Shown one piece after another: positions 5,871-61,537 of a DNA stretch of 64,000 nucleotides. This DNA comes from a virus (lineage: Duplodnaviria; Caudoviricetes), in IMG/VR virus record IMGVR_UViG_3300028048_002144, one strand, 5' to 3'. The position numbers were made by a program, and so were the translations under genes. Below the pieces are notes generated by a model. The model searched no databases, had not been told where the DNA came from, and was given only the letters and a program-made list of their open reading frames with translations. Each line of letters begins with the position of its first letter. Position 1 is the first letter of the stretch.

Positions 5871-6068
5871 CTAATTATTGTCATCATCATATTCAACTTC
5901 TGTTATTTCTACATATTCTGAAGACTCGTCTAAGTCAAAATCTCTTTTATCTACAAATGCCTTCGCTTCTTCATATGTAGGGAATGTGCCTATTTGCTCT
6001 TGAAAATTATGATATTTATTGAATATATCTACTGCATATTTTGTTTTCATAGCATTCCTCCTATGCAA
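5871..6068 (-). CDS. Hypothetical protein
   Basis: Short ORF; probable start MKTKY after GAGGA. Confidence 0.55.
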   Translation of the reverse strand: MHRRNAMKTKYAVDIFNKYHNFQEQIGTFPTYEEAKAFVDKRDFDLDESSEYVEITEVEYDDDNN

Positions 6069-6993
6069 AAGACAGTTCTTTAACTGATACTGTTTTAGTA
6101 AGACGTTTAGCTATATTTTTTACCTTTTCTTTGTCAAATTCTACAAGAATAGCTTTTCTTTTTGTTTCTATAGCAGCTTCACCAGTAACACCAGATCCGG
6201 CAAAAGGATCTAAGATTATTTCATTTTCATTTGTAAGAAATTCAATAATCTGTTTATATAATTCTACTGGTTTTTCCGAACAAGATATTCGCTCTTTTTT
6301 AGGAACTGCCTGTACATCGAAACAAGTTGGTAGCATTCCTTTTGCTCCACTCATAAAACGTGTAGGATTTCCATTTTCATCTAATCCTCTCTGTTTATCT
6401 GGGCGTAAAGCTCTAGCTTTACCTTTAGAAAAGATCATAATATCTTCAGTATTCTTTGCACATCTTCCCGTATTAGATACAAAAGTGCCTTTCTTCCAAG
6501 GGATTTTTGCATAATACTCAAATCCACATTCCTTAGCCCAGGATTTAATCTGATACAAGTATTCAAAATTCGTAGCAGATTCTGGTGGTAATACTTCAAC
6601 TAAAAATGCTCCATCTTCTAAAACTCTTGCCTTTTCAATGAAATCTTCTTTTGTATATCTAAAAGTTTCATAGTCGGCAAAATTTCGATTTCCACCTTTA
6701 GTTGATTTCTTATCATCCCAAGGGTGATCGCATAATAGCAGCTGAATTGAATTATCCTTAATACTATCTAATTTTCTTCCGTTACCCTCAATCAGCAAAA
6801 CAGATTCATCTTCAGTAAGATAAAGACCTCTGCCTACTTTCTGAAACAAGATGCCTAGGTTTTCGTATATTCTTGCTCTTACAGATTCTGGGTTTGATTC
6901 TGGATTAACTTCATACGCTTCTTTTAAAGAAAATGATTTTCCCTTAAATACTTCTATAATATTGTTAACAATACTCATTTTATCTCCTTTCAT
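6061..6993 (-). CDS. DNA methyltransferase (N4-C/N6-A, beta-class order) with N-terminal HTH-like region
   Basis: DHPW (motif IV variant) precedes EKPVEL..ILDPFAGSG (motif I). Confidence 0.85.
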   Translation of the reverse strand: MKGDKMSIVNNIIEVFKGKSFSLKEAYEVNPESNPESVRARIYENLGILFQKVGRGLYLTEDESVLLIEGNGRKLDSIKDNSIQLLLCDHPWDDKKSTKGGNRNFADYETFRYTKEDFIEKARVLEDGAFLVEVLPPESATNFEYLYQIKSWAKECGFEYYAKIPWKKGTFVSNTGRCAKNTEDIMIFSKGKARALRPDKQRGLDENGNPTRFMSGAKGMLPTCFDVQAVPKKERISCSEKPVELYKQIIEFLTNENEIILDPFAGSGVTGEAAIETKRKAILVEFDKEKVKNIAKRLTKTVSVKELSFA

Positions 6994-7100
6994 ACTTAAA
7001 AAATCTACTTTAAATATGAATTATTTTTATAATAAAAAATACCCAGGAGCTATGCTCCTAGGTATTTATGTATTAATCGTTCGTTAATAAACGTTATTAT

Positions 7101-7475
7101 TTAGTTTTCGTCTCCGAACTTCATCTTTGCTCCACAATGACAATATGGAAATTCTTTTAAAAGGCTCATCTTTCCGTGATATTTACTACTTATTTCTCGT
7201 CCACATTCTGAACAATGATAAGTTTGAAATCCGACTGCCTGCACACCCTGGTAATCGTTAAGAATCCATTTACCTTCTTTACGCTCATCTAATTTCATTA
7301 AGGCATAATTCTCTTTGATTTTCTCAAGAATTTTACCCTGGCGATAAGCTGTGTTGAATTCTTTTACGAATGCTTCTAAATTCTTCTGTGAGATTTTGCA
7401 CATACCTAATCGGTCATACTTGGCACGAATAGTTCTTCCATCAAGTAATTCATATTCTTTAGTTTCCATTTTCAT
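7101..7475 (-). CDS. Phage-like protein with C-terminal Zn ribbon
   Basis: [18 protein letters not shown]. Confidence 0.7.
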
Positions 7476-8298
7476 TCTCGCTTTCTGCTTTATATGGTTC
7501 AGGTTTTGGCATCCAAGCGGTTATATATTTTTCCGTTCTCTTTTCGAAAGGAAATACAGTGCCATATACAACAGTTGTTTCTCCAAATATTTGAGTAACA
7601 AGCACTTGTTGACCTTTTTCTGGCAACCTCTCACTACAAGGAATCCAGTTTCGTACAGGTATAACGGACGATAAACCTTCAATACGTTTTCTCAGCTCTG
7701 AATCTAATGTAACATCGCAACCATTACCAGTAGAATAGAATATCTGATCCATTACATCCTTTCTACTTACTGCATCATTGCAAGGTTCCGATTCTAACTT
7801 TCTTCCTAATTCATCAGCCTTACGCATATACCATTTTGTACGTTTTAGCCATTTGTTAAATTCTTCTTCATCCCCTAGTATTGTTTTAACAGCATTTTCG
7901 TCATCAAAATAATCTACTAAATTCTGATATCGTTCAATAGCTAGAGAATTGTCTTCCAGGGCTTCATCAAATCCTTTTGCGTATCCATTCTCATACTCAT
8001 TTGATACTAATTCTCTGTATTCCTTTTTAGTTAGTATCACTTCGTCTTTTTGAAGTTCTTGATCTAGTAGATGACATAACTCTAATGCTTCATCATGAGT
8101 CAATCTGTTATCCCAACATTTGTAATCACTTGCTAGTTTATAGATATGCTGTTTTGCATCTTGAAATTTTTCATAAGGTTTTTGATCTCGTTCTAAGACT
8201 TTAAGAATAATTTTATAATCATCTACATCAAGATATATCTCAGCATTATCTTTAGCTAATTCACTTTTTATGTACTTAACTATTTCTTCTTTCGTCAT
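7459..8298 (-). CDS. Phage-like protein with C-terminal DUF551-like domain
   Basis: [23 protein letters not shown]. Confidence 0.75.
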
Positions 8299-54304: not shown

Positions 54305-54730
54305 TTAGTTTAATAAAAAATTTGGTAATAATATAATGAAAAGCACTGCCATAATAAGTAGATATAATTTATCTTTAGTATCTACCTCTATATAGGTGCC
54401 ATCATTTACGGGTAAATATCCTATAGGAATTCCTTCTAAACGGTCATATACGTTTATTATTTGCCCTCTTTTAGTCTTTAGGGCATTTATAGGTGAATTC
54501 CCAAACAAACGTCTTCTGGTTAAGAAGATGTGGCCTTTTACCTCACCAGGAGGTAACGTATAGCCTTTTATTTGCTCAGCTTTTAAAAACGTTACCCCTC
54601 TTTTGGTTTGGGTAATAAATTTATAATCATCTTCGTCATAGCCATATTTGAAGAAATCTTCTTTAAAATTAGAATTTTCTTCTAAATATGTATTCAATAA
54701 AATTGATTTTCTCTTCTCTCTTTTTCTCAT
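54305..54730 (-). CDS. Hypothetical protein with C-terminal TM
   Basis: 141-aa ORF, AGGTG RBS. Confidence 0.6.
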   Translation of the reverse strand: MRKREKRKSILLNTYLEENSNFKEDFFKYGYDEDDYKFITQTKRGVTFLKAEQIKGYTLPPGEVKGHIFLTRRRLFGNSPINALKTKRGQIINVYDRLEGIPIGYLPVNDGTYIEVDTKDKLYLLIMAVLFIILLPNFLLN

Positions 54731-54740
54731 AGCTCACCTT

Positions 54741-56099
54741 TTAATTATCAACTCGTGTACCATCTTCATAGATTCTGAATGTGCTTGTAGATAAATCACA
54801 GTCACTATAATTATTAGTGTTCTTTAAGATGATTCGATAAAGTCCTACATCTAATCCCTCTAAAGTAATAGTCTTATTTACATTTTCCTTTAAAGTTTTT
54901 ATCTTTTTAGGCTTATCAATTGTTCCATCTTCTTTTATCTTCGCATAGTAAAGAGTTGGTTTCTTCTTATTGTCTGGATCTCTCTTTGCTCCAATAGCGA
55001 CTTTGATGGATACTTTATCAAATGCTTCATCATCACTAGTTATATTTACATCTCTATAAAGAGTAGATGTTTTATCCTGTACAGAATCGTAATCGCTATA
55101 TTCAACGTCTGGAGCATCTTCATCTTTCTTTGCAGGGTTAAATGTTTCTTCGCCCTTATCGTCATACTGGATAATAGATTCGTTTTTATTCTTTTCACCG
55201 TCTTCTGGATTTACATATTTAAAGATTCCGAAATCATTTATAGAATAATATCCGGTCTTTAAATACTCTGGGAGCTTAATCTTCATTACTCCGTCTTTTA
55301 CGAATTCATATCCTTCACATTCGAAGGTACTCTTTTCCATTGATGAGAAAATTCTAGTATCTGCCTGTACTTTCTTTACATATCGTTTAGTTCCGATATA
55401 TACTTCCATTTCATACCAGGAGTTTCTCTTTAGACCTTTTATAGTTCCACTTTTTGATACATCATCTTTAGTGATGTTCTGTTTTCCTAGTTTTGCTATA
55501 GATACTGCAGGCGGTTCATCAGCATCAGATTCAAAAGCTCCTTTAGCAAAACTCATAGTAGAACCGTTCTTAATTCCGCATCCGTCCTGCGCTTTAACTA
55601 TGTACTGATCGATATTGTCGATATTTCGATACAGTCCATAAATTCCAACACTCACTCCGTGATCATAGAAATGTTCTAGTGTTAGTTTATCTGGCAATTT
55701 TTCCTGGGATTTGAATATTAGTTCATCTCCCTTTCTCAATGTTGGTATTTTGTCGTCATTTTTAGCTAACATCCAAAATATTCTTTTACCACTTCCGATA
55801 TCAGTTGTACTTCCAGTTACAGCTCCTTCTTTGTATACTGGAGTGAAAATTTTATTTTTATAATTCTTGAATTTAGATGTATCTACAGAAATATCTGAAG
55901 CTAAATCTTTTTGCTTGGAATCATGCCATACATAATAAGCTTTATCCATTAATTCATTTGAATCATTAGTAGCAAATGAATCATCCGTTTTTAACTTTTC
56001 TGTTTCAGCATTCTTACTATTTCGTATAATAGAACATCCACTCAAGGTTCCGAGTAACAACGGGATAACTAATAACCCGCAAAGTTTTCGTTTATTCAT
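54741..56099 (-). CDS. Lipoprotein (native start 56099; the inserted element adds an in-frame GTG at 56150)
   Basis: MNKRKLCGLLVIPLLLGTLSGC lipobox. Confidence 0.8.
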   Translation of the reverse strand: MNKRKLCGLLVIPLLLGTLSGCSIIRNSKNAETEKLKTDDSFATNDSNELMDKAYYVWHDSKQKDLASDISVDTSKFKNYKNKIFTPVYKEGAVTGSTTDIGSGKRIFWMLAKNDDKIPTLRKGDELIFKSQEKLPDKLTLEHFYDHGVSVGIYGLYRNIDNIDQYIVKAQDGCGIKNGSTMSFAKGAFESDADEPPAVSIAKLGKQNITKDDVSKSGTIKGLKRNSWYEMEVYIGTKRYVKKVQADTRIFSSMEKSTFECEGYEFVKDGVMKIKLPEYLKTGYYSINDFGIFKYVNPEDGEKNKNESIIQYDDKGEETFNPAKKDEDAPDVEYSDYDSVQDKTSTLYRDVNITSDDEAFDKVSIKVAIGAKRDPDNKKKPTLYYAKIKEDGTIDKPKKIKTLKENVNKTITLEGLDVGLYRIILKNTNNYSDCDLSTSTFRIYEDGTRVDN

Positions 56100-56323
56100 A
56101 AAATTATTCAGGTGCGGAAACCCACTACCTTTAGGTGGTGGGAGGAGCACCGTCCTCCTTTCGTTATGATATAGAATCTTGTCTCTCTGTTAAAAACAGT
56201 TTTGGCTTTTCTACCAACTGTATTCTCTCGTAACGTAGTGCTAACGAATTTCTGCTGTTGCACTTAGGCTAGTCAACTTTGGGCTTCTGCAAGCCCATTC
56301 CCTTTAGGGAATGGGTAGTTGAC
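56100..56323 (-). mobile_element. Non-autonomous IS200/IS605 (IscB-type) element with truncated omegaRNA and no ORF
   Basis: GTCAACTACCC..CTAAAG..GGGCTTG..AAGCCC..GTTGACTAGCCTAAG..ACTACGTT; far-end hairpin CTCCCACCACCTAAAGGTAGTGGG; followed by ATGAA. Confidence 0.85.
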
Positions 56324-56334
56324 ATGAAACACCT

Positions 56335-56928
56335 CTAATTTAACCTGATCATGCCCTCTACATCATTAGGGTTTATATCTTCCTCGCTATCAAATTTCTT
56401 AATATGATTTAATGCCATGTTTAGCTGAGCATATTCAGCGCTTTCTGGCTGCTGATCTAAGAATATGAGTGCATTTATTTGTGATTGATATATAGCGTCT
56501 TCTTTTTCTTCGTTATTATTAGCTAAAAAGTACGCCATTTCTTTTGCATCTTGGTTCTCAAGAGTATTTACGCACTCTAATATCTTTACCCATTTAGGAA
56601 TTAAATTAATTGCATCCTGGATAAAAATTCGATATCTACTAAATGACTCTTCTAATTCAGCATTAGATAAATTTTCATTAAGAGTTTTGATCTGGATAGT
56701 TACGCCATTTTTATTCGCTTCATTTAATGGAATCGAAAGCTCTAATGGTTCTACAGAATGAATCTTGCTTTCTTTTCCATCTTCATCCTTTAATACAAAT
56801 TCTAATCGCAATTTTGAAGTGTCTTTATTACAGTACACTCTTAATATATTTCCAAATTCATCATCGTATCGGCAAACGCCTTTATCTAAAAATAGATTCT
56901 TCTTTAAAACTAACATTCTTTCCTCCAA
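56335..56928 (-). CDS. Hypothetical protein
   Basis: 197-aa ORF downstream of promoter motif; start uncertain. Confidence 0.6.
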   Translation of the reverse strand: MEERMLVLKKNLFLDKGVCRYDDEFGNILRVYCNKDTSKLRLEFVLKDEDGKESKIHSVEPLELSIPLNEANKNGVTIQIKTLNENLSNAELEESFSRYRIFIQDAINLIPKWVKILECVNTLENQDAKEMAYFLANNNEEKEDAIYQSQINALIFLDQQPESAEYAQLNMALNHIKKFDSEEDINPNDVEGMIRLN

Positions 56929-57065
56929 TTTTTGGTTGCGTATATTTTTGATATGTTGTTTAGAAATCTTTCTATATTAATTATGACAGACTGCCAAATC
57001 TACATTTGGGCATTATAAAAGCCTGTGCAAGTGGTTAACTTGCAACAGGCCCTTTATTAATATGC

Positions 57066-58559
57066 TTAATACACTCCTAAGTCTCCGAAGTTTCCCATGA
57101 AGGCTAGGAAGAATACTACCATGTCTATCATTAGTTTAGCTCCACCAAATATTTGTGGAGATAAGAATAACATGTACATACCGGCTATTGAGTTTTCATT
57201 AGCTAATCGCTCGGCTTTGTCTAACATTAAGTTATTTCGATTAATAATGTCTCGTATCTGCTGATTAACATCTCCACCAGATCCATTAGATATTGCATAG
57301 AACAACTTCATAGATGATGTTATTTCAGGCATATCAAAGAATTTCATGAATTCTATATATGGAAGTGATGCGTTAGGGTTTTCAGTTAAAGCATTACTTA
57401 ACTTGATAAGTTCTGGCTTTAATACCTCTCCAGCAGAATTAATACTCTTATACAATGCTACCTGTACGTTATTTGACTGCATAAGAAGTGCCATTTCCAT
57501 TAGCCATCTAGGGAACTGGATAGTAATTTCTTTCTTTAAGAGCTTTAATCTCTTTGCGTATACAATCTTATGTCTTAATAGAATGAATACAGCGAAGAAT
57601 GCAGCTAATACTAAAGCAAACCATTCAGCAGTATAAAAAGCTAATAATACTAAAATAATGGGAATTACTAGCATCTTTAAACTCTTCATAAATTCCGTTT
57701 TAGCATCATAGTTCATTATATACTTATAGTATCGTCTTACTTCGTTAGGGTTCATATTCTCTGTTCCTTTTAACCAGGATACAGAAATACTTTTATCTGT
57801 AAGGTAATATATAAACAAACTAGCTATGAATAATAAAGTAGATGTAACCTGTGTCAGAACCAAGTTCGAGATATTTACCTGGGATGGTAATATTCTCTCC
57901 ATGATGATACAGATGAGATATGATGTAATGATTGACATCATAATTGTCGTTTTCTTCTGTTTCTTTTCCTTCTGGAAGTCAAGTGTTCTGTCTACCCATT
58001 TAGTTCTATCAACAAGAAGAAGTTCAATAGTATCATCTACATCTCCTCCTCGTCTTTCAGCTTCAATTAGTACCTTATGTGCCTGCTTCATCTTGTTACA
58101 ATCATATTCTTTTTCGATATGATCAAGTGCAACTTCGATATTCTTATCTGTTACTAACTGCTCTGCTTCTCGGATTAACTTTCCCATTGGCCCATTTGCA
58201 AATAATGGTTCTACTTCCTTTAGAGATGTTAGTATTTTCTTATTTCCTCTGAATGAATAAAGCATTTGTTCTATATACTGAGATACATCAGAGAACTTCT
58301 GCTGTTCAAATCTCTGCTTATATGCATTCATTATAATGGCTGGTAAGAATATAAATCCGGCCATTAGAGTAATAGACATAAATGGTGGTGTTAGCTTAAA
58401 CATGAATCCAGCTACTACAGTTAAGAAGAAATATACAAGGAAAATTATAAGGATACTTTTTACGGATATCTCATATCCATAAGTCTTTACCTCTGAACTT
58501 ATATTCTTCCAACTCATATAGTGGATTAAGCTTTGTATCTTTTTCTTTAGCTTTTCCAT
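57066..58559 (-). CDS. Fused TadB/TadC-like pilus assembly platform protein
   Basis: Two T2SS-F-like halves with TMs, directly downstream of the TadA-like ATPase. Confidence 0.75.
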   Translation of the reverse strand: MEKLKKKIQSLIHYMSWKNISSEVKTYGYEISVKSILIIFLVYFFLTVVAGFMFKLTPPFMSITLMAGFIFLPAIIMNAYKQRFEQQKFSDVSQYIEQMLYSFRGNKKILTSLKEVEPLFANGPMGKLIREAEQLVTDKNIEVALDHIEKEYDCNKMKQAHKVLIEAERRGGDVDDTIELLLVDRTKWVDRTLDFQKEKKQKKTTIMMSIITSYLICIIMERILPSQVNISNLVLTQVTSTLLFIASLFIYYLTDKSISVSWLKGTENMNPNEVRRYYKYIMNYDAKTEFMKSLKMLVIPIILVLLAFYTAEWFALVLAAFFAVFILLRHKIVYAKRLKLLKKEITIQFPRWLMEMALLMQSNNVQVALYKSINSAGEVLKPELIKLSNALTENPNASLPYIEFMKFFDMPEITSSMKLFYAISNGSGGDVNQQIRDIINRNNLMLDKAERLANENSIAGMYMLFLSPQIFGGAKLMIDMVVFFLAFMGNFGDLGVY

Positions 58560-58576
58560 ATGTGGATCCTTTCTGA

Positions 58577-60061
58577 TTACTTCTGGCTTTTATATGCCAT
58601 AATCTTTTCCTCTATTGAATTTTCATCTTGTATTAGTTCTGGTTCAAGGGCAGCCATTTTTATATTTTCATTATTATTCTCATCTGAATTATTCTTGTTT
58701 GGTTCAGTATCATTAGCCTTTACAACATCAGTAGCTTTTAAATTAAGCTTATCTCCCCAAATAGCTGCAGCTTTTTCTTTGTCCATTTTATCTTTCTTTG
58801 TTTCTTTATAGCCCTGCTCTATTAAGTTTTCTTTTACAAGCTCATTTTCAAATGGATTTGTAATCTGGGCATTCTTGAATTTCTTCTTTATCTTTGAAGG
58901 AATTACTGTTCGATAGAATTCTCCATCATCTAATAACAGATAACATTTATTTTCCCCTTCATCATTTGAGAAGAATCCGATCTGATCGATATATCGTCTC
59001 TGTCCACCTTTTCCATCTGGTTTCATAGATACCATGATCGCTACATCTATGAATTCATATACGTTATTCTTGAATCGCTTCTCTACAATACTATCATCAA
59101 TCATGTTTACCATTCGTTCTGGTACTTTTCTTACATCATCTGTATGTAGTGTAGTGATTCCGTTTACACCAGTAGTAAATCCCTGCATAAGATACTTAAC
59201 TTCGTTTGCTCTTGTTTCAGCGATCATTATCCAGTCTGGATTCTGCTTTAGTGATGCTACAATTGCGTCTGAATATGTAATATCTTTATTAGTCTTCATT
59301 TCAATTACATCTGCAGTTGGATTCAAGGCTTTATAATGCCATTCAAGTACATCTTCAATAGTGATTACTCTTTCGAGATCAGGGATATACTTTGAAATAA
59401 ATTTTGCAAGCTCTGTTTTTCCGGCTCCAGGGTTTCCACAAATAATTACATTCATATGTGCTTTTACGAAATTAGCAAGCAAACATAATACTGGTTCGCT
59501 TACATAAGCTTCTTCAAGAGCTTTACCTTCTTTGATTCGTTCTACTACAGGTGTCTTTCTGATACAGATAGATAATCCTGTCTGAGCAATAGATGGATGC
59601 ACAGATGAAAAACGAAGATCTTTTGTTTCAGCTTCCAAGAATGGATTCTTCTGATTGAATTCCTGGGACTGGATATTTGCTACGTTCTGCGCAAGCTTTG
59701 TCATAGCTTCGATTGTTAATTTACTCTTATCGAAGTATTCTGGTGTATGTCCATCTTCGATTTCTTTTCCATTTGCATCGTATTTCGCTAACATATCCTC
59801 TCCGTCTTTAGCTTTCCAATGACGGTTATAGATATCTGTTAATACTAATTCTCCATTGTTATAGTCTACGTCAGTTATATCTGTATTCTGTACGTAACCT
59901 TTAATGGATTCGAAATCCTCTATAAACAACTGAAATCCAGCATGTGTTTCTGATGCCTGGACTCCTTCTTTCTGTTCGATCTTTTCTTTTATTGTGAATG
60001 CGTCATCTGAAAAAACGTTTTTATTATCAATCGTTTCTTCGGGTATTTTTTTATTGAACAT
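58577..60061 (-). CDS. cpaF: TadA/CpaF (VirB11-like) ATPase
   Basis: ICIRK, GNPGAGKT, ITIEDVLE, QNPDWIMIAETR, TTLH. Confidence 0.88.
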   Translation of the reverse strand: MFNKKIPEETIDNKNVFSDDAFTIKEKIEQKEGVQASETHAGFQLFIEDFESIKGYVQNTDITDVDYNNGELVLTDIYNRHWKAKDGEDMLAKYDANGKEIEDGHTPEYFDKSKLTIEAMTKLAQNVANIQSQEFNQKNPFLEAETKDLRFSSVHPSIAQTGLSICIRKTPVVERIKEGKALEEAYVSEPVLCLLANFVKAHMNVIICGNPGAGKTELAKFISKYIPDLERVITIEDVLEWHYKALNPTADVIEMKTNKDITYSDAIVASLKQNPDWIMIAETRANEVKYLMQGFTTGVNGITTLHTDDVRKVPERMVNMIDDSIVEKRFKNNVYEFIDVAIMVSMKPDGKGGQRRYIDQIGFFSNDEGENKCYLLLDDGEFYRTVIPSKIKKKFKNAQITNPFENELVKENLIEQGYKETKKDKMDKEKAAAIWGDKLNLKATDVVKANDTEPNKNNSDENNNENIKMAALEPELIQDENSIEEKIMAYKSQK

Positions 60062-60620: not shown

Positions 60621-61169
60621 TTACACATACGAATTCTGTAAAAACTCTATTGTTTTTTCGTGGTAATTAGCATTCTCCGTCTTACTCATTAAATCGAACG
60701 CTTCTTCTCTAGTTAATGCGTCTCGATATGGTCTTGACGATGTTAATGCTTCATACACATCTATCGTATGCAGGATCTTTGCATATTCTAGTATCTTTTC
60801 CGTTTTCTTAAATTCAACCGGCATTAATGTTTCAGGATTTTCAGTATGATGATACAGTATGATGTATCGAACTTCTTCACTTATGTTCGTTTCATTTAAT
60901 AGTTCAAAACTAAAATATGCATGGTAGTTAACTATCTTTCTTTCAAGATTAGTTAATCGTCCAGGTTTATTCAGAATGCTTTCTGATAGGTAATATTTTC
61001 CTACGTCATGGAATAATGCTGCGGTAGATAAAACCCCTTCATCTAAATTTAGGGTTTGTTCTAAAACCTTCGCTATGTTATACATTCTGATACTGTGTCT
61101 TCGGGTAATTAAGGGTAATCTCTCTACGAGTTCACTTTCCTTATCTCCCCACTGGTCAAAATTTTCCAT
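60621..61169 (-). CDS. HD-GYP-family protein (putative c-di-GMP phosphodiesterase)
   Basis: TRRHS, FHDVGK, ILNKPGRL, YHH, IDVYEALTSSRPYR; canonical GYP not evident. Confidence 0.85.
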   Translation of the reverse strand: MENFDQWGDKESELVERLPLITRRHSIRMYNIAKVLEQTLNLDEGVLSTAALFHDVGKYYLSESILNKPGRLTNLERKIVNYHAYFSFELLNETNISEEVRYIILYHHTENPETLMPVEFKKTEKILEYAKILHTIDVYEALTSSRPYRDALTREEAFDLMSKTENANYHEKTIEFLQNSYV

Positions 61170-61537
61170 CTATTTCTTAGCAGGATACCTCGATTTTTAT
61201 AAGTCAAGAATCCCCTACGTCTCCTTTCTGTAAATTACTGATATGTTTATTGCTATAAGCCGGTACATACCAACCGTAATGCAGCCTTCGCCAATGTTAT
61301 TATGAGGTTTTTGTAAGCAACACTGTTCCTACCCATCAGAACTGTTTAATCACTTACCTTAGAGCTACAGACTAGGCTGTACATCCGTAGGTAACTATAC
61401 ATGACAATGAAACTGCTAATGTTTCATTGTATATTCTCATATAACGTAGTCAGTTAAGACTTAGGCTAGTCAATTAAGGCTTTTACAAGCCTCCACTTCA
61501 ATGATTATGAAATAATCGTAAGTGGTGGGTTATTGAC
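61170..61537 (-). mobile_element. Non-autonomous IscB-type element with near full-length omegaRNA (HEARO) and no iscB ORF
   Basis: GTCAATAACCCACCAC..GGCTTG..AAGCC..TTGACTAGCCTAAG..ACTACGTT..GTTACC..GCTCTAAGG..TTAAACAG..AACAGTG..AACATTGGCGAAG..AGAAAGGAG; followed by ATGGA. Confidence 0.9.

Follow-up and report, generated by a model that had tools for sequence, protein, structure and literature searches.

Cas9 and Cas12 descend from IscB and TnpB elements, whose persistence in compact genomes calls for an explanation. Several properties of such elements have already been published: IS200/IS605 elements can lack cargo and retain remnants of a guide RNA, they have the target ATGA(A), and they depend on transcription from upstream. 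The target-adjacent motif (TAM) of GstIscB is TTCAT (bioRxiv 10.1101/2023.03.14.532601), the 5′ flank of the element serves as the IscB guide (Meers et al. 2023, bioRxiv 10.1101/2023.03.14.532601), and ISC elements target N|ATGA (Kapitonov, Makarova, Koonin 2016, PMC4810608). Here we describe a 64,000-nucleotide stretch of DNA from a virus of the Caudoviricetes (IMG/VR record IMGVR_UViG_3300028048_002144; hereafter, the window), in which a 224-bp block at positions 56100–56323 directly precedes the ATG of a lipoprotein gene. Judged from its sequence, this block is almost certainly a decayed, cargo-less IscB-type IS200/IS605 element that sits on the lipoprotein start codon. The best overall explanation of the locus, and in our view a probable one, is that a Shine–Dalgarno (SD) motif in the left end of this decayed element keeps the lipoprotein gene translated. 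No paper linking the TAM to start codons, and none describing a left-end SD, turned up in a literature search.

The lipoprotein gene is read from the minus strand, and in that direction the locus consists of GAGGTG (56335–56330), TTTCAT (56329–56324) and then the 224-nt block, which runs from 56323 to 56100, opens with GTCAAC at 56323 and closes with AATTTT at 56100; ATGAATAAA begins at 56099. The upstream open reading frame (ORF) ends with a TAG at 56337–56335. When 56100–56323 is removed in silico, the remaining sequence reads GAGGTG-TTTCAT-ATG, which is a ribosome-binding site (RBS), 6 nt and an ATG. One boundary T is ambiguous, and the restored sequence is the same whichever way it is assigned. 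With the element in place, the displaced native RBS GAGGTG is 230 nt from the lipoprotein ATG, and the upstream gene is separated from the native start by 235 nt, compared with 11 nt when the element is absent. The flanks are not duplicated. On the plus strand, TTCAT abuts the left end, and the order is TTCAT, left end, right end. Subterminal hairpins, each with a 9-bp stem and a TAAA loop, are found at both ends (56294–56315 and 56121–56142), and the flank 56324–56343, the scaffold and ATGAA follow one another in the guide/TAM geometry. No ORF beyond chance expectation is present inside the 224 bp, and tblastn revealed no similarity to TnpA or IscB anywhere in the 64-kb window.

Three claims of the original prediction, made from the letters of this DNA, bear on the identity and the site of the element. 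The first, that excision of 56100–56323 rebuilds an RBS 6 nt from the lipoprotein start, is correct to the base. The second, that the TAM is the start codon itself, agrees with the homologues, since the native methionine is the start in 13 of 13 aligned lipoprotein homologues and ATGAA directly follows 72 of 72 distinct sister left-end sites. The third, that the block is a mini omegaRNA element of the IscB type, is borne out by a match to the Rfam family HEARO that begins at 56323 and by a left end shared with IS200/IS605 elements.

The HEARO match (RF02033) covers the 5′ 155 nt of the element, and model position 1 falls exactly at 56323. Its score is 46.4 bits, which lies below the gathering score of 83, with an E-value of 2.4e-8 in a 601-nt search (∼3e-6 when scaled to the whole window). 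The alignment spans model positions 1–211, and the first 84 model positions align well, with high posterior probability. This well-aligned part contains the P1 helix, two inner hairpins and the CUACGUUA stretch, and it is in these that the likeness to HEARO lies. The element differs from the family in three respects: stretches of 10 and 8 nt stand in place of the two central hairpins (35 and 46 nt), the pseudoknot lacks its 3′ partner AGGCT (cmscan flags non-canonical pairs there), and there is no HNH/IscB ORF. A full copy at 61170–61537 pairs TAGCCT with AGGCTG, and the mini copy has no counterpart of this pairing. The iscB gene is absent from the element and from the 64-kb window as a whole. 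Because the central stems and the pseudoknot partner are gone, the mini omegaRNA is probably no longer a working guide.

A GTCAAC start followed by a hairpin is not diagnostic of HEARO. The reading of all such starts as HEARO was rejected because in three contigs (L008, L020 and L022) P1 does not close and the sequence is that of a TnpB-type right end read on the complementary strand. L022 carries an IS605 element at ∼6000–8000 (minus strand) with tnpA and an antisense tnpB-like ORF, and its right end is HEARO-like at the start (GTCAAC and hairpin) without closing P1. The shared start in this case reflects the TnpA end rather than an IscB guide RNA.

The 3′ 69 nt of the element form an IS200/IS605-type left end, in which a 22-nt hairpin (56121–56142) lies within an internal loop that is closed by a 5-bp basal stem and followed by an 11-nt linker. 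The identical 22-nt hairpin is present in 64 contigs from genomes and in 20 from viruses; the distinct left-end sites number 72, and the length of the linker is similar across the sister left ends. The basal stem covaries across lineages: its arms all differ among family A, L021, L026, L015, L028, family B and L033, as read from single-sequence folds in which the register of the internal loop differs between lineages. The closest left end is that of contig L130, which lies just after a truncated tnpA remnant and whose difference is a compensatory basal-stem pair; a looser left-end pattern was found only in L130 and in a copy of L026. L022 carries tnpA with the same left-end hairpin.

Just upstream of the basal stem, the element carries a strong SD motif. 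The motif is a 9–10-nt perfect complement of the 16S 3′ end, longer than the ordinary RBSs of the replicon, and its SD:anti-SD duplex has a predicted energy of −15.8 kcal/mol, versus −10.9 kcal/mol for the displaced native RBS. In the structural ensemble, the probability of being unpaired, P(unpaired), is 0.57–0.85 for the SD and 0.4–0.9 for the AUG region. GGAGG can also pair with the adjacent CUCCU, and that form is the minimum free energy (MFE) structure of a 111-nt fragment. A motif of the form GAAAGGAG(G) stands 0–3 nt before the basal stem in six lineages whose covarying stems differ, the carriers being this element together with L130, family A, L021, L026, L015, and a full IscB element of Enterococcus cecorum (L028). 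The contexts also differ. In family A the SD directly follows the tnpA stop, L026 and L015 are tnpB elements, and in E. cecorum the SD lies 14 nt after the iscB stop. Because the same position is kept in ends linked to tnpA, tnpB and iscB, the SD is a feature of the left end and not only an iscB RBS. The candidate explanation that it is solely an orphan iscB RBS was rejected, since the same SD–stem junction is found after tnpA remnants and 14 nt after an intact iscB stop.

Left ends without an SD before the hairpin often have one in the linker. When 40 left-end types are sorted in this way, a strong SD precedes the hairpin in 14 and an SD lies 6–9 nt before the TAM ATG in 18, while no type has both and 8 have neither. 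At least one kind of SD is therefore present in 32 of the 40 types, and the same pairing energy is reached by 11.6% of the stretches upstream of random ATGAA sequences. ORFs of 100 codons or more begin at the TAM ATG in 20 of 69 sites, compared with 330 of 2083 random ATGAA sequences (15.8%; p = 0.005); for elements with a linker SD the proportion is 37%.

The E. cecorum element (L028:4169–5837, minus strand) is a sister insertion in which the consequences for the adjacent genes can be followed. It scores 106 bits against HEARO, encodes a 427-aa IscB and has the same left-end hairpin. It precedes a 581-codon kinase-like gene and lies within the ATGA stop/start overlap of that gene with a response-regulator-like gene. 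Its first four bases rebuild the last codon (K) and the stop of the upstream gene, and neither protein is altered. The original prediction had named empty alleles in relatives as the check on its junction. None was found for the viral locus, and the empty alleles of the E. cecorum site (L134 and L138) show exactly the predicted joint; in the genus, 2 genomes are empty and 4 are filled. The ratio of nonsynonymous to synonymous divergence (dN/dS) of the kinase-like gene is 0.05–0.08 between filled alleles and 0.06 between empty alleles, at a dS of 0.09–0.25. The gene behind the E. cecorum element thus stays under purifying selection.

The window itself contains a second element with a comparable layout (61170–61537, minus strand). 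It has a full-length HEARO match (128.6 bits) and no iscB, and is bordered exactly by AAAGGA-8 nt on one side and, on the other, by the ATG with which an HD-domain gene (60621–61169) starts; its TAM is ATGGA. Although its hairpin is unrelated, the arrangement is the same: an SD, 2 nt, a 39-nt stem-hairpin, 10 nt and the ATG. Its tail resembles the region upstream of iscB in L123.

These features suggest the following history and mechanism. A TnpA-type transposase probably once placed the element immediately 3′ of TTCAT on the plus strand, which is directly 5′ of the gene-strand ATGAA. After landing, iscB and much of the guide RNA would have been lost, possibly when the iscB RBS recombined with the left-end SD, which is similar to it; this route is suggested by the tail before the SD, which looks like the sequence that immediately precedes iscB in the full elements L123 and L117. 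The left-end SD would now recruit ribosomes for the lipoprotein gene. The most likely route would be that ribosomes bound at the SD reach over the folded 41-nt left-end structure and start at the native AUG, which is unpaired, so that the whole would act as a split RBS; a less likely one would be initiation at a paired, in-frame GTG 3 nt after the SD. The mature protein would not depend on the route, since the N-terminus belongs to a lipoprotein signal peptide that is cleaved off. The distance from the SD to the AUG is 54 nt in the linear sequence and 13 nt when folded, and the folded distance in the sister lineages is 7–15 nt. In the split RBSs of bacteriophage T4, folding reduces the spacing from 22 to 5 nt for gene 38 and from 27 to 11 nt for gene 25 (PMC3014915), and the latter value is comparable to the folded distance here. 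As a family property, a left-end SD would let elements occupy start codons without silencing the gene. We infer that the SD drives translation at this locus, a proposal towards which the balance tips slightly; if translation is rescued in this way, the native AUG is the probable start, rather than the GTG.

A number of observations weigh against such a rescue or limit its reach. No empty allele of the locus was found, the protein search and five contigs yielding either identical filled copies or relatives of at most 49% identity, and the phage and plasmid collections containing no match. There is no second copy of the mini element within the window, and the right-end hairpin has no match in viral contigs nor the left-end 22-mer in metagenome contigs. 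The either/or distribution of the two kinds of SD gives p = 0.03 by rough lineages, and because the types are related, statistics at the level of types are inflated. Family A, which has the pre-hairpin SD and represents a recent burst in one metagenome-assembled genome (MAG), shows no enrichment at gene starts (4 of 32, or 12%, versus 15.9%). The folded spacing of 13 nt, to which the width of the helix end must be added, exceeds both the 4–8 nt common in the replicon and the two T4 precedents. Five full IscB elements (L092, L100, L120, L123 and L125), delimited by putative boundaries, are apparently located at start codons and lack a left-end SD. The SD could be an orphan IscB RBS, or a recombinant of the IscB RBS and the left-end SD, and not an adaptation. 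Finally, the basal stem may have been selected at the DNA level for TnpA and not as RNA.

The rescue could also proceed mainly from the in-frame GTG, with the element SD driving initiation at 56150 and the 17 additional N-terminal residues being removed with the signal peptide. The sequence AAAGGAGG-ACG-GTG lies at 56161–56148 (minus strand), and the statement in the original prediction that its GTG opens 17 codons in frame with the lipoprotein gene holds: no stop interrupts the frame between the GTG and the ATG, and public gene calls start at the GTG (the 469-aa protein P0001, of which P0023 is a version written with V). The SD is both very strong and exposed, its spacing to the GTG of 3 nt is just 1 nt below the 4–8 nt found for most genes of the replicon, and a bound 30S subunit easily melts a 5-bp stem. 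The extension would be harmless, falling within the n-region of the cleaved lipoprotein signal peptide, and the lipobox is invariant (G38 and C39 in 14 sequences). However, GTG is a weaker start codon than AUG, and here it forms the center of the 5′ arm of the basal stem GGTGC/GCACC and is mostly paired in the ensemble, with a P(unpaired) of 0.17. The counterpart stem in the closest relative, L130, is GGCGC/GCGCC, which has GCG at this position and hence no start codon. In other lineages there is no start after the SD or a stop is met, and the second omegaRNA-only element of the window has a TAG in frame directly before the ATG. Initiation at the GTG as the main route of expression is thus unlikely.

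These comparisons also separate the parts of the original prediction that concern initiation. Its general proposal that the element re-provides translation initiation stands insofar as the element has a strong, exposed and conserved SD that plausibly sustains translation; its replacement in-frame start is not supported as stated, the GTG being neither a designed nor a conserved property. Against such a start stand the GCG of L130, the lineages without a start and the pairing of the GTG. In a survey of similar elements, which had been suggested as a check for in-frame bias, the frame across the left end is open in 25 of 41 left-end types, as is common by chance, and starts are not conserved; in-frame design as a trait of the family was rejected on the same grounds. 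The in-frame GTG looks like an incidental product of the covarying stem rather than a designed feature. The further suggestion that the lipoprotein gene is under RNA-structure control is speculation.

A second alternative holds that nothing compensates for the insertion. The SD-like motif would then represent no more than an orphan IscB RBS or a left-end component that acts at the DNA level, the gene would be weakly translated without an SD or be in the course of being lost, and the insertion would be recent and tolerated. Every available copy of the locus is filled and none differs from the others, which may mean that the insertion is indeed young. The resemblance of the tail before the SD to the iscB upstream region of full elements, the absence of an SD from the linker, the full IscB elements apparently at start codons without any left-end SD, and the unpaired state of the AUG region, which is an A/U-rich start region, all speak for this alternative. 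It does not account for an SD that recurs at the same position behind tnpA remnants, within tnpB elements and, in a full element, 14 nt downstream of the iscB stop, nor for the finding that left ends have an SD either before the hairpin or in the linker but never in both places. The long-term purifying selection seen in E. cecorum on the gene that follows the element also argues against this alternative, as does the state of the viral gene, whose 452-codon ORF is intact and which is conserved, with its gene order, in the syntenic cluster of all relatives. We therefore consider an uncompensated insertion doubtful.

The STAB-SD elements of Bacillus, in which a ribosome-bound SD protects the 5′ end of an mRNA, are a parallel for a third alternative, namely that the motif acts on the fate of RNA. 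It could be a 5′ stabilizer, in which the ribosome-bound SD and the hairpin would shield the downstream mRNA after excision of the omegaRNA, or it could neutralize the left-end CUCCUCC, which could otherwise pair with host SDs. The perfect 9–10-nt complementarity to the 16S 3′ end, the GGAGG–CUCCU pairing in the MFE structure of the 111-nt fragment and the need for omegaRNA to be processed from the operon transcript (Meers 2023) are compatible with such a role. Because it leaves unexplained why lineages without a pre-hairpin SD have an SD at RBS distance before the TAM ATG, we regard this alternative as very improbable. That the 224 nt are no insertion and represent a native structured leader of the lipoprotein gene, as the failure to find an empty allele of the locus might suggest, is scarcely tenable given that HEARO homology starts exactly at the junction, that the left end is common to ∼70 mobile copies ending at ATGAA, that the distance from the upstream gene to the start is −8 to 31 nt in the homologous loci, each of which has an ordinary RBS, and that the sister element has both empty and filled alleles.

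The preferred reading, a decayed IscB element whose left-end SD would sustain translation of the lipoprotein gene, is summarized by feature in Table 1.

Table 1. Features of the element and of its insertion site, in gene-strand order
Feature	Position	Strand	Basis or remark
Upstream gene, same operon, 197 aa, intact after insertion	56335..56928	-	Would transcribe omegaRNA by read-through
5′ flank, would-be omegaRNA guide: upstream stop 56335–56337, native RBS 56330–56335, spacer	56324..56343	-	Position
Whole 224-bp non-autonomous IS200/IS605 element (PATE-like)	56100..56323	-	Excision restores RBS-6 nt-ATG; no TnpA/IscB ORF
Reduced IscB-type omegaRNA scaffold (HEARO-like), also transposon right end on the opposite strand	56169..56323	-	RF02033 match
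Subterminal hairpin of the right end with 9-bp stem and TAAA loop, 8 nt from element end	56294..56315	-	Inverted self-match; IS200/IS605-like geometry
Strong SD motif GAAAGGAGG, 2 nt before left-end basal stem	56154..56162	-	Anti-SD duplex, conserved position
In-frame GTG, 5′ arm of basal stem	56148..56150	-	Used by P0001; unconserved in relatives
Left-end structure: basal stem 56147–56151/56111–56115 around internal loop and TnpA-type hairpin 56121–56142	56111..56151	-	Folds
Linker of the left end: 11 nt beyond the basal stem, 21 nt between hairpin foot and cleavage site, no SD (duplex +0.4 kcal/mol)	56100..56110	-	
TAM ATGAA (TTCAT on plus strand); ATG 56097–56099 is the native lipoprotein start	56095..56099	-	Homologues and literature
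Lipoprotein gene of a conjugation cluster (type IV secretion system-like), 452 codons from native ATG, lipobox LSGC	54741..56099	-	Homologues, synteny

The lipoprotein gene belongs to a cluster with the order T2SSE-type ATPase, TadB/C-like protein, small protein of ∼170 aa and lipoprotein, followed further on by SSB-like and VirB4-like proteins. The neighboring genes are all co-oriented and closely packed, and no terminator-like site was found on the gene strand within 54500–58800; read-through would therefore transcribe the guide-RNA remnant. Such read-through would produce the omegaRNA remnant with the displaced RBS region as its would-be guide, which is the usual situation for IscB. An outward promoter-like site inside the element (56166–56193; 10/12 match) was not counted, as promoter-like sites are not enriched over shuffled sequences. 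The motif KTCATATT occurs 38 times in the replicon (17.6 expected) and has no minus-strand copy between 47388 and 60581. If KTCATATT is a promoter element, the conjugation genes around the element form one unit of ∼13 kb.

Variants of the left end were observed in several other contigs. The hairpin match in L012, L040, L054, L069 and L089 lies in ultra-small elements of ∼56–66 bp, which consist of the eight right-end bases, a single hairpin common to both ends and the left-end linker before ATGAA; those of family B keep the linker SD. In one family-A left end (L036:35–107, plus strand), the 5′ side of the internal loop is replaced, giving one perfect long stem of −38 kcal/mol. More than 30 near-identical, tnpA-bearing family-A copies, many of them at contig ends, are found in contigs of MAG HGM20068 and of a Succinivibrionaceae MAG (L027–L090). 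Within one IscB family (L096, L097 and L105 versus L118), the copies diverge right after GTGTTAAA, before any ATG. The TAM of this family is therefore not ATG-initial, and the assumption of an ATG TAM for every IscB element in viral contigs was rejected.

Two tnpB elements on one 198-kb viral contig (L015:2330–2440, plus strand, and L026:2333–2470, minus strand) have a consensus-like promoter just before the left-end SD, which in L015 is TTGACA-17 nt-TATAAT; both promoters point outward towards the TAM. In IscB elements of large viral contigs (L092, L093, L100, L104, L107, L120, L123, L125 and L128), an RBS-like 5′ flank lies 4–12 nt away from the right end, and the left end is followed by a motif that begins with ATG and opens a long ORF; the boundaries in these nine contigs are inferred. 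In L107 and L128, an SD lies 6–7 nt before that ATG.

For the viral locus alone, the implication is modest: a decayed element occupies a predictable site. The wider proposal, which we put forward tentatively as possible but short of probable, is that a clade with one left-end hairpin and the TAM ATGAA, comprising TnpA-only, TnpB, IscB and cargo-less elements, evolved its left end as a portable translation-initiation region, and that the mini element is a decayed member that still serves in this way. If so, the target would supply the ATG and the element would supply an SD, either 6–9 nt upstream in the linker or before the hairpin as a split RBS. Elements would settle on start codons inside operons, where read-through makes the guide RNA and the captured gene is not silenced. 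The target motif of IscB/TnpB elements is often a start codon, and a left end that rebuilds the RBS would explain why such elements are co-oriented inside operons, how insertions that look lethal to a gene are tolerated for long periods, and why gene callers report odd N-terminal extensions such as the 469-aa call here. The design rule would be simple, a TAM that is an ATG plus an SD borne by the element, and the locus would show how, in nature, a hairpin that binds a transposase can lie within an initiation region that works.

The closest described relatives are the ISGst IscB element and the PATEs of Geobacillus stearothermophilus (10.1101/2023.03.14.532601), which have the same ends with subterminal hairpins, the TAM TTCAT and cargo-less copies. 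They are also alike in having an omegaRNA scaffold with its start at the right end, a guide in the 5′ flank and a dependence on read-through from a co-oriented upstream gene. The omegaRNA of the viral element differs in being cut to 155 nt and in lacking the pseudoknot partner, and the ISGst/PATE paper describes no start-codon insertion or left-end ribosome-binding motif. ISC transposons (PMC4810608) share insertion precisely 5′ of ATGA without target duplication, termini common to IscB, TnpB and TnpA elements, and a Y1 transposase that acts in trans. In that work the targets were defined from empty sites, and ATGA was not related to start codons or to translation signals of the element.

The split RBSs of T4 genes 38 and 25 (PMC3014915) resemble the proposed arrangement in that a stable hairpin brings a distant SD and an AUG close together. 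The folded spacing is 13 nt here rather than 5 and 11 nt, the hairpin here is a transposase-binding DNA end, and the split RBS here is a predicted one. Insertion sequences that provide outward expression signals for an adjacent host gene are represented by IS10, with pOUT, and by ISAba1. Those elements supply promoters at variable distances from the gene, whereas at the viral locus the target gives the start codon and the end of the element gives the SD; a complete initiation region would therefore be rebuilt to the base.

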